Source: a virus
Taxonomy: Duplodnaviria; Caudoviricetes
DNA: 63,694 nt
Reading direction: 5' to 3' (one strand)
IMG/VR virus record: IMGVR_UViG_3300030101_003495
Span: 1 to 63,694 of that record
The notes under the pieces were generated by a model, which saw nothing but the letters and a program-made list of their open reading frames with translations, searched no databases and was not told the origin of the DNA. The position numbers were made by a program, and so were the translations under genes. Of this stretch, positions 10,921 to 12,174 are shown one piece after another (within the stretch, counting starts at the first letter, position 1; each line of letters starts with the position of its first letter).

Positions 10921-12174
10921 ATGTCTAAACAAGAAGAAGTAAAAACAAAAGAAGAAGTAAAAATTACTGCTACTGATACTACTCCTACTAAAAAAGAAGG
11001 AGATTTTAAAATAAAAAGTGCAAAAAAAATAAAAAACTTAGGTGAAGAAAAAATACCTGATATTATTAAGGTAGATTTAAGTAAACCTAAAAAAGAAGAA
11101 AAAGATGCCGTTCAAACACAAAAGACAAATGATAGCGATGTTGTTGTCGAAGAGCAAGAAAACAGTGGCGACAGCGAAAAAGTGGTTGAAGAAGTACGGT
11201 CCACCGACGAAGGAGTAGAGTCTGACTCGCCTATACAACTAATAACAGATGAAAACGATACACCTGACGAGGCAGGAGTGGATGGAAGCGCTGAAACTAC
11301 CACTACCTCATCGAAACAAGAAGAAATACCACAGGAAGTTCAAACACAAAAACTCCCTGAAAATGTAGAAAAACTAGTAAAGTTTATGGAAGAAACTGGC
11401 GGAAATATACAAGACTACGCTAGATTAAACGCTGACTATACTAATGTAGATGAAACTACACTTTTACATGAATATTACAAACAATCTAAACCTCATTTAA
11501 ATGCGGAAGAAAGAAGCTTTATAATAGAAGATTCTTTTTCATTTGATGAGGAATTAGATGAAGCAAGAGCTATTCGTAAGAAAAAGCTTGCATATAAAGA
11601 AGAAGTTGCAAAAGCCAAGAACTATTTGGAAAAAATCAAGAGTAAATATTACGACGAGATCAAGTTGAGACCGGGCGTTACTCAAGAACAACAAAAAGCC
11701 ACTGACTTTTTCAACCGCTACAATGAAGAACAAAAAGCAAATAATGTTAAACACGACCGTTTTGTTACCAAAACTAAAGAATTATTAAACGATAATTTCA
11801 AAGGTTTTGATTTTAATTTAGGAGATAAAAAATTTAGATACGGTATTAAAGATCCTGGTAGTGTTGCAAATAACCAAAGTGATATTTCAAATTTTATAGG
11901 AAAGTTTCTTAATAAAGAAGGAGAAATAACTAATACTAAAGGTTATCATAAAGCATTATATGCTGCACAAAATGTAGATACTATTGCTAATCATTTTTAT
12001 GAGCAAGGTAAAACTGATGCTATTAAAGATCAATTAGCAAAATCCAAAAATATAAGTACTGATAGCCCAAGGCAAACAGCTACGGGTGATGTATTTGTTA
12101 ATGGTTTTAAAGTAAAAGCAATTAGTGGTGTTGATTCTTCAAGATTAAAAATAAAAAAGAAAACATTTAACTAA
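10921..12174 (+). CDS. Putative capsid scaffolding protein
   Basis: Acidic disordered N-terminus; located between portal and major capsid genes. Confidence 0.7.
   Translation: MSKQEEVKTKEEVKITATDTTPTKKEGDFKIKSAKKIKNLGEEKIPDIIKVDLSKPKKEEKDAVQTQKTNDSDVVVEEQENSGDSEKVVEEVRSTDEGVESDSPIQLITDENDTPDEAGVDGSAETTTTSSKQEEIPQEVQTQKLPENVEKLVKFMEETGGNIQDYARLNADYTNVDETTLLHEYYKQSKPHLNAEERSFIIEDSFSFDEELDEARAIRKKKLAYKEEVAKAKNYLEKIKSKYYDEIKLRPGVTQEQQKATDFFNRYNEEQKANNVKHDRFVTKTKELLNDNFKGFDFNLGDKKFRYGIKDPGSVANNQSDISNFIGKFLNKEGEITNTKGYHKALYAAQNVDTIANHFYEQGKTDAIKDQLAKSKNISTDSPRQTATGDVFVNGFKVKAISGVDSSRLKIKKKTFN
11105..11218 (+). CDS. Overprinted 37-aa basic protein (MPFKHKRQ...AKKWLKKYG), +1 frame in scaffold gene
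   Basis: ATG at 11105 has A at -3, -6, -12 and -13; the host frame locally uses rare codons (CGG TCC ACC GAC). Confidence 0.55.
   Translation: MPFKHKRQMIAMLLSKSKKTVATAKKWLKKYGPPTKE
11249..11368 (+). CDS. Overprinted 39-aa basic protein with ArfA-like tail (HRNKKKYHRKFKHK), +1 frame in scaffold gene
   Basis: ATG at 11249 after TAA TAA; local GC/codon shift; NKKxYxRKxKH motif. Confidence 0.5.
   Translation: MKTIHLTRQEWMEALKLPLPHRNKKKYHRKFKHKNSLKM

Follow-up and report, generated by a model that had tools for sequence, protein, structure and literature searches.

The viral record IMGVR_UViG_3300030101_003495 (Duplodnaviria; Caudoviricetes) comprises 63.7 kb of DNA and is 99% complete; its whole length of 63,694 nucleotides was analysed and is referred to here as the window. 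On the plus strand at 10921..12174 lies an open reading frame (ORF) of 417 aa, which is called the scaffold-position gene in the following, the name "scaffold" being taken from its position alone. The N-terminal ~150 aa of its product are acidic and poorly conserved. This part of the gene carries a second and much shorter plus-strand ORF in frame +1 (ORF-B, 11249..11368 including the stop codon), which encodes a basic, ArfA-like peptide of 39 aa. Its translation from ATG to TAG reads MKTIHLTRQEWMEALKLPLPHRNKKKYHRKFKHKNSLKM, and ORF and peptide agree letter for letter with an initial annotation of this DNA, which had described an overprinted peptide with an ArfA-like basic tail. In this study, we present evidence that ORF-B is almost certainly a real overlapping protein-coding gene, whose translation is inferred, and that it has been overprinted in frame +1 on the part of the scaffold-position gene that encodes an acidic, disordered linker.

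The start codon of ORF-B (11249..11251, plus strand) is made from the scaffold codons GAT-GAA and is preceded, two codons upstream and in the same frame, by the stop codons TAA TAA. The leader is A-rich, and the ATG is present in 13 of the 14 related sequences that bear this segment. No Shine-Dalgarno-like G run was seen upstream of ORF-B. Bacteroidota hosts are not known to use Shine-Dalgarno sequences, and an A-rich leader of this kind is compatible with such hosts. The initial annotation had further noted a departure from the usual codon usage in this part of the gene. For local composition, this was borne out by a GC-enriched patch at 11075..11374, with a GC content of 0.41-0.47 compared to ~0.25-0.30 in the flanks, which covers ORF-B and the second embedded ORF (ORF-A) described below and fits either a double-coding constraint or a foreign origin of the segment.

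The mere existence of an open frame is of little significance at this locus. When the scaffold residues of 14 related sequences were retained and their synonymous codons redrawn by genome codon usage, the +1 frame was open with a mean probability of 0.43 (range 0.08-1.0), and the window contains 15 +1-frame ATG ORFs of at least 39 aa within its 31 long ORFs (48.6 kb). The open +1 frame alone is thus no more than chance, and the caveat attached to the initial annotation, namely that Glu-rich main frames bias the +1 frame, was justified. Since the open frame lies within chance, the evidence for a gene consists of its conservation as a protein and of its homologues elsewhere. These two also bear on the view that there is no gene here, and that ORF-B is a by-product of a Glu/Asp/Thr-rich frame with rare +1 stops and a bias towards Lys. 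Both figures given above would agree with such a by-product, but they leave unaccounted for a scaffold wobble position that is conserved while first positions vary, as well as hundreds of homologues in unrelated contexts, free-standing genes included, which together make this view extremely improbable.

The conservation was assessed in a set of relatives chosen through the scaffold protein and hence independent of the peptide. A scaffold-protein search of viral contigs yielded 80 loci that were kept, and the ORF-B segment was found in 14 of these. In 12 of the 14, ORF-B is intact, starts with ATG and has exactly 39 codons. Across the peptide core, nucleotide diversity at scaffold codon positions 1, 2 and 3 amounts to 0.38, 0.22 and 0.12 in 15 scaffold-selected sequences, so that the scaffold wobble position is the most constrained one there; for the C-terminal domain, the corresponding values in the same 15 sequences are 0.19/0.12/0.39 and 0.16/0.11/0.37. 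The ratio of non-synonymous to synonymous differences (pN/pS), computed from the same bases, is 0.21 in the peptide frame versus 1.90 in the scaffold frame (66 pairs), and it is 0.26 with a pS of 0.71 in seven free-standing copies (21 pairs). The constraint therefore acts on a protein and not on a DNA or RNA element. A larger set of 39 same-length copies, in which 736 of 741 pairs show higher conservation of the peptide than of the scaffold frame, was partly found via the peptide and carries the corresponding ascertainment bias. The ORF-B frame is under purifying selection. The initial annotation had proposed to examine whether the +1 frame stays open and the motif is kept while the scaffold diverges, and this is what the scaffold-selected relatives display. 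Two hallmarks of an overprinted gene, constraint on the synonymous sites of the overlapping frame and homologues that occur as independent genes, are found for ORF-B.

A few database gene calls (P0180, P0183, P0205) join a scaffold-like N-terminus to the basic tail of ORF-B, as would be expected if the tail were an alternative C-terminus of the scaffold N-terminal region that is reached by a programmed +1 frameshift. However, among the 80 viral loci that were fetched with a call of this fused type, 75 carry the tail motif, always within a separate ATG-started ORF of 40-47 aa and never in fused form, and in these 75 loci the ORF is located at +1 of a long ORF (~400 aa where the whole gene lies within the locus). 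The stops that closely precede the ATG in the peptide frame and the free-standing copies with a start of their own likewise argue against frameshifting, which is very unlikely. On the basis of the separate ORFs at these loci, both an in-frame fusion and a frameshift product were rejected.

The ORF-B peptide is a member of a large, unnamed family of peptides from marine phages. Searches with a peptide profile, followed by confirmation, gave at least 360 viral loci with a member of the family, and all fetched loci together contain 205 distinct copies, 157 of them lying at +1 within a long ORF. Copies that stand alone were seen in other phages and in unrelated contexts (L138/L139, L148, L156, L157, L161 and others), so that the absence of free-standing homologues, which the initial annotation had named as a reason to discard its proposal, is not what was observed. 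The neighbours of the free-standing copies are mixed and include genes for an AAA ATPase, DNA ligase, GroEL and RecN. Two of these copies adjoin a PolyA_pol-type nucleotidyltransferase of the tRNA CCA-adding/poly(A) polymerase family, and one of the two loci also harbors a PNKP phosphatase and a kinase (PNKP-type RNA-repair genes). At L139:2258-2392, a very basic ORF of 44 aa (MARVIASEHTKQHKKKRPG...) adjoins the free-standing family member.

The family shares the core L-T-x-x-E-W-x-[ED]-A-[LM]-K-x-P-x-P-H-R-N-K-K-K-Y-x-R-K-x-K-H-K. In 32 diverse members, the residues W11, P18, P20, N23, K25, K26, R29, K30, K32 and H33 are invariant, and L6, T7, E10 and Y27 are nearly so. In ORF-B, the N-terminal core part L-T-x-x-E-W-x-E-A (11270..11290, residues 8-14, plus strand) is predicted to be helical; an AlphaFold2 model of the peptide shows two helices, one of them at residues 8-14, with a mean pLDDT (predicted local distance difference test) of 78. 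The basic tail R-N-K-K-K-Y-H-R-K-F-K-H (11312..11347, residues 22-33, plus strand) can be aligned to the tails of ArfA and of a protein of Pseudoalteromonas phage J2-1, and its K32-H33 (11342..11347, plus strand), present in all 32 members, corresponds to the "KH motif" known from ArfA and BrfA.

In protein collections, 788 of 8000 scored clusters match the family at E<=0.01. The best 120 of these 788 clusters have lengths of 38-72 aa, and all of them are without a functional name or Pfam domain. At E<=0.001, the matches comprise 83 representatives at 50% identity. A genome collection contributed 16 family loci, all from metagenome-assembled genomes (MAGs) and eight of them from Bacteroidota. 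A cellular gene of Bacteroidota was considered and rejected, given this origin of all 16 loci from MAGs and a match in only one of 401 genomes of the phylum, the other 400 being without a family match. The one match, on a 268-kb Bacteroidota MAG contig (L177:3983-4147), is a lone divergent member located directly 3′ of recN in a chromosomal-looking context. Judged from these distributions, the family is essentially viral. A search of NCBIfam with the family gave no match, and neither did tblastn against GenBank phages with the window peptide and L138, a result which the low-complexity filter and the short queries render uninformative. The only hit of a profile search of the PDB was the C-terminus of colicin E3 (LKGPDPKRNIKKY) with an insignificant E-value of 0.75. 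The idea of a kinship with bS22/mS38 was dropped, as there was no signal from Pfam or NCBIfam. In the literature, no paper was found on the motif, on DUF7230 or on this overlap, and nothing specific on overlapping genes in scaffolding genes.

As to the function of the peptide, the initial annotation had remarked that NKKKYxRKxKH resembles the tail of E. coli ArfA while lacking GKGS. The ArfA stretch quoted there (...EKNKKGKGSYMRKGKH) is correct, Y-x-R-K-x-K-H is indeed common to both proteins, and KGKGS is absent from ORF-B. The basic tail is aligned by hhalign to ArfA residues 34-45, with Y27, R29, K30, K32 and H33 of ORF-B corresponding to Y39, R41, K42, K44 and H45 of ArfA, and an ungapped alignment with ArfA residues 28-49 has K, Y-x-R-K-x-K-H and N in common. 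According to excerpts of the respective papers, the mRNA tunnel holds ArfA residues 31-48 (PMC5378476), RF2 (release factor 2) is bound through residues 15-31 (PMC6299226), and ArfA and BrfA share a conserved KH motif along with the contacts to the mRNA entry channel (PMC8012679).

The closest connection to ArfA was provided by phages. With E. coli ArfA as query, ArfA-like ORFs were detected in 17 phage-collection records, a few of which are bacterial contigs, and all six phage ArfAs that were fetched as positive controls scored above the Pfam cut-off for ArfA. The protein of Pseudoalteromonas phage J2-1 (ATN93434.1, 51 aa, L356:283-435) is without KGKGS, has the tail RDKTKYRRKKKHKN and ends with ...RDKTKYRRKKKHKNREEG. 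It reaches 41.3 bits with the Pfam ArfA model (cut-off 25.5) and 28.6 bits with DUF7230 (cut-off 27), and it matches the ORF-B family profile with an hhalign probability of 77% and an E-value of 2.1e-5. By these scores, the J2-1 protein appears to bridge ArfA and the ORF-B family, and its passing of both cut-offs suggests that DUF7230 is an ArfA-related family. DUF7230 (PF23876), grouped here with phrog_6310, is a model of 42 positions for small phage proteins. Sub-threshold matches to it were obtained for 25 of the 32 diverse members, at model positions ~13-35 and with a best E-value of 4.6e-4; phrog_6310 is matched by the family at E-values from 4e-4 to 5e-3 and by the window peptide at 0.0054. 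The likeness lies in the type of small phage protein, and the difference is that the matches to DUF7230/phrog_6310 stay below the cut-off and cover the basic half only.

A shuffle test was applied to this similarity, in which 91 distinct ArfAs and 4550 shuffles of them were scored with a hidden Markov model (HMM) built from 171 distinct family sequences. The ArfAs reached a median of 8.1 bits, E. coli ArfA 11.3 and the J2-1 protein 17.3, and the shuffles had a 99th percentile of 4.2 and a maximum of 11.1 bits. In the ESM Atlas, a cluster in which 23% of the members carry PF03889 appeared at rank 8 with a score of 0.91 and, when a second family member was used, at rank 16; this is taken as a lead only.

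A second line of evidence is the arrangement at the 3′-end of copies that are not embedded. Among 48 copies not classed as embedded, a number which includes some embedded copies on cut loci, 21 contain a G+C-rich hairpin of 9-10 bp with a T tract behind it. The distance from the KH codons to the start of the hairpin is 0-7 nt in each of these 21 copies, and the hairpin always ends upstream of the stop codon, which is located at +48 to +93 nt. In the remaining 27 copies, the stop codon follows 12-27 nt after KH and no such hairpin is present; in the embedded copies, it was found in none of 157. At least four stem types occur at the same place, with compensatory changes and free energies of -14 to -19 kcal/mol. 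A terminator within the ORF means that the transcript ending there has no stop codon. This layout is known from arfA, which has a stem-loop in the ORF and is subject to RNase III cleavage or premature termination and to control through tmRNA (transfer-messenger RNA), and whose hydrophobic read-through tail is degraded (excerpt of PMC3989581), as well as from brfA with a terminator ahead of the stop codon (excerpt of PMC8012679). The read-through extensions of the hairpin copies are rich in hydrophobic and aromatic residues. Judging from these terminator-like hairpins, the 21 free-standing copies are predicted to have the non-stop-mRNA layout of arfA and brfA. In these copies, the in-ORF terminator would yield a non-stop mRNA of the gene itself, and the level of the product would be set by the tmRNA system of the host, as for arfA and brfA. 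The window peptide, ending six codons after KH, would be made directly at "mature" length, close to that of ArfA in its active, truncated form, where 7-10 residues follow KH. In seven loci (L157, L161, L162 and L288-L291), a conserved AT-rich motif (…CGTATATTTACA..GTAAATAAAGGTTAT) is located 3′ of the hairpins and holds the eventual stop codon; it may be the promoter or the start region of the next gene.

Taken together, these data lead us to regard ORF-B as a likely, though by no means certain, example of a divergent rescue factor of the ArfA type that binds the mRNA channel. With similar reservation, its product can be placed, as a probable and divergent member, in the group of small basic proteins made up of ArfA and DUF7230. 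In the proposed mechanism, the C-terminal tail R-N-K-K-K-Y-x-R-K-x-K-H-K would enter the mRNA entry channel that is left empty in ribosomes when they stall on the 3′-end of a truncated mRNA, and the N-terminal strand/helix part K-x-I-x-L-T-x-x-E-W-x-E-A-L-K would engage a release factor. The nascent chain would thereby be freed and the ribosomes recycled to phage protein synthesis late in infection.

The short and basic nature of the match would also suit a small protein that binds nucleic acids to another end, for instance to condense DNA in the head or to act as an RNA chaperone or regulator, and whose likeness to ArfA would reflect convergence of lysine-rich tails. The location of ORF-B in a head module, the mixed neighbours of the free-standing copies, the failure of the membership tests for ArfA and DUF7230 and the insignificance of the best PDB match are in line with a protein of this kind. 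It is nevertheless unlikely in view of the shuffle test, by which the order of the residues appears to count and not their composition alone, of the J2-1 protein passing both family cut-offs, and of the hairpin before the stop codon, for which there is no obvious reason in a DNA-binding protein. Alternatively, the tail might bind the mRNA channel and act against the host, as a plug or mimic that blocks host initiation, tmRNA-SmpB or the host rescue factors. Such an activity would draw on the same evidence from the tail, would agree with the missing similarity to the RF2-contacting segment of ArfA and has a precedent insofar as tail peptides of rescue factors can inhibit trans-translation (excerpt of PMC8012679). 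Yet the in-ORF hairpin layout of the 21 free-standing copies fits a factor that is made when the rescue capacity is exhausted rather than an inhibitor, and the N-terminal half, with its invariant W11, is conserved as strongly as the tail, which suggests a second specific partner. We therefore consider a plug directed against the host to be quite improbable.

Several observations weigh against a rescue factor of the ArfA type. None of the 32 diverse members matches PF03889 at E<=10 (Pfam cut-off 25.5 bits), and the ArfA model found no match in the window in six frames. In hhalign, the family reaches a probability of 6.9% over 22 ungapped columns against 12 canonical ArfAs, and 31% after the phage ArfAs were added to the ArfA alignment. 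Every alignment between the family and ArfA is limited to a tail of 18-23 residues, and the similar part is short and rich in lysine. The P-L-F-R-x-R region that contacts RF2 lies beyond all of these alignments and is absent from the family, the N-terminal half of ORF-B has no detectable relative, and KGKGS, which is invariant in all 12 aligned ArfAs, is replaced by R/K-N-K-K-K in the ORF-B family. The family members score 15-17 bits with DUF7230 versus a cut-off of 27, and the window peptide itself has no match in Pfam. The 91 ArfAs used in the shuffle test are mostly close kin and represent few independent comparisons. The in-ORF hairpins were called by a simple rule rather than by mapped 3′-ends, and ORF-B of the window has an ordinary stop codon and no such hairpin. 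Stops, or a loss of the ATG or the motif, in close homologues had been named in the initial annotation as an argument against its proposal; ORF-B is lost in two of the 14 close relatives (L009 and L042) and intact in the other 12, and five related contigs that lack the segment are devoid of ORF-B elsewhere too, so that the gene is dispensable. Finally, the hosts of the nearest cultured relatives are Bacteroidota. In contrast to ArfA, the ORF-B family probably has hosts outside the beta- and gammaproteobacteria. Bacteroidota hosts are not known to possess ArfA.

The original proposal of a hidden gene with an ArfA-like tail, possibly a rescue factor, hence stands with respect to selection, free-standing homologues, the shared tail, the bridging protein and the hairpins, but formal membership in ArfA did not hold. 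The comparison of profiles that had been recommended was accordingly divided between no PF03889 hit with a weak canonical hhalign score and the higher-scoring match to the phage J2-1 protein.

Concerning the surroundings of ORF-B, the plus-strand ORF at 11105..11218 (ORF-A) encodes 37 aa beginning with MPFKHKRQ... (MPFKHKRQMIAMLLSK...) and lies in the same +1 frame, 30 nt upstream. All 15 of the scaffold-selected sequences that were examined contain it, as do relatives without ORF-B, and by eye it is better conserved than the scaffold frame. Variants of ORF-A match phrog_1375, a family with no function annotated, at E-values from 1.3e-4 to 3.3e-4, and at E<=0.001 there are matches to 658 small database proteins of the MPFKSEAQRR...HPEIAKRW type. 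ORF-A is a second embedded gene in the scaffold-position ORF. Translation of ORF-B probably starts internally on the late mRNA of the head genes, and with the end of ORF-A 30 nt upstream, termination-reinitiation or another coupling to ORF-B would be possible.

The scaffold-position gene is flanked by a portal gene (phrog_6547, E 6.5e-141) on one side and a capsid-like gene (phrog_13704) on the other, and no Pfam or PHROG family was found for the 417-aa protein. Cultured relatives of this protein are those of Flavobacterium elemo phages, of Maribacter phage Panino and of one uncultured podovirus; they align at 31-33% identity from residue ~131 onward only and are annotated as "structural protein" or "hypothetical". 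Neither ORF-A nor ORF-B is present in Flavobacterium phage elemoF, Maribacter phage Panino or Podoviridae ctfjg026, and among cultured relatives no system representing this lineage was found. As acidic frames give lysine-rich +1 frames, linkers of this type may be a natural place for the gene of a basic peptide.

In a wider and more tentative view, to which we attach slightly less than even confidence, marine phages would carry a very large unannotated branch of ArfA-type factors that is missed by standard models, including phages whose nearest cultured kin infect Bacteroidota. The free-standing copies would gauge the tmRNA capacity of the host, and one podovirus lineage would have accommodated it, along with another small gene, in frame +1 of the acidic linker of its scaffold gene, so that a rescue factor and head proteins would be made from one late mRNA. 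If this holds true, ribosome rescue would be a common phage-encoded function in the sea, performed by a peptide family that is invisible to current annotation. The family would supply a natural series of KGKGS-less tails for studying how the mRNA channel is read, and its hairpin-before-stop genes would represent a third, independent use of the layout that arfA and brfA employ for tmRNA feedback. Two small genes embedded in one head gene of a tailed phage, with the embedded frame being the more constrained one, also bear on the frequency with which gene callers overlook such genes.

Among known systems, the closest counterpart is ArfA itself (PF03889; YhdL in E. coli). Mature ArfA comprises ~52-55 aa and the members of the ORF-B family 36-50 aa, so that both are small, and in both the C-terminal tail is basic and contains Y-x-R-K-x-K-H, of which the KH motif is a part. 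ArfA possesses KGKGS and P-L-F-R-x-R, whereas the ORF-B family is without both. A hairpin placed like the one within the arfA ORF is predicted in 21 free-standing relatives, but not in the window copy. BrfA of Bacillus shares with the ORF-B family, by description only, the KH motif and, with these 21 relatives, a putative terminator before the stop codon. BrfA and ArfT, the latter a protein of 40 aa from Francisella, are small rescue factors with basic tails that depend on release factors and are regarded as independent inventions (excerpts of PMC8012679 and PMC6299226).

Small genes of the ArfA type carried by phages are known from J2-1, from the Citromicrobium phage RXM, where g10 is annotated as ArfA (excerpt of PMC8953757), and from the pelagiphage HTVC027P, where gp30 is annotated as ArfA and expressed early and late (excerpt of PMC12753301). 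The J2-1 tail K-Y-R-R-K-K-K-H-K-N nearly matches that of the ORF-B family, and both lack KGKGS. In contrast to ORF-B, these phage proteins pass the ArfA model, keep L-F-R-x-R-V-E and are annotated and free-standing, HTVC027P being compared by description only. ArfA-positive and unannotated ORFs were also observed in Pseudomonas phage pf16 (L358:286-435, 72.2 bits), where the ORF overlaps gp199 on the opposite strand, and in Caulobacter phage Cr30 (L359:265-414, 27.2 bits).

The cultured Roseobacter phage CRP-212 (MZ892988.1) contains an unannotated canonical ArfA ORF with KKGKGSY (L354:289-411; 33.3 bits, E 3.3e-8) at +1 within gp38 (1203 aa), where it lies in the Asp/Glu-rich C-terminus. Like ORF-B, it is of the ArfA type and occupies the +1 frame of an acidic region in a large phage protein; unlike ORF-B, it is a canonical ArfA, overlaps another gene and belongs to another phage lineage. 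A canonical ArfA ORF hidden in this way suggests that the pattern recurs. Phage-encoded ArfA-like factors and embedded phage genes are already known as kinds, to which ORF-B would add a divergent variant; it stands for a large family that has escaped annotation and for a double overlap of an unusual sort. Classical examples of a small gene lying wholly inside another in the +1 frame are Rz1 within Rz of phage lambda and E within D of phiX174, both with lysis functions; they are embedded like ORF-B, which differs from them in that its frame is the more conserved one and that it occurs as a free-standing gene elsewhere.

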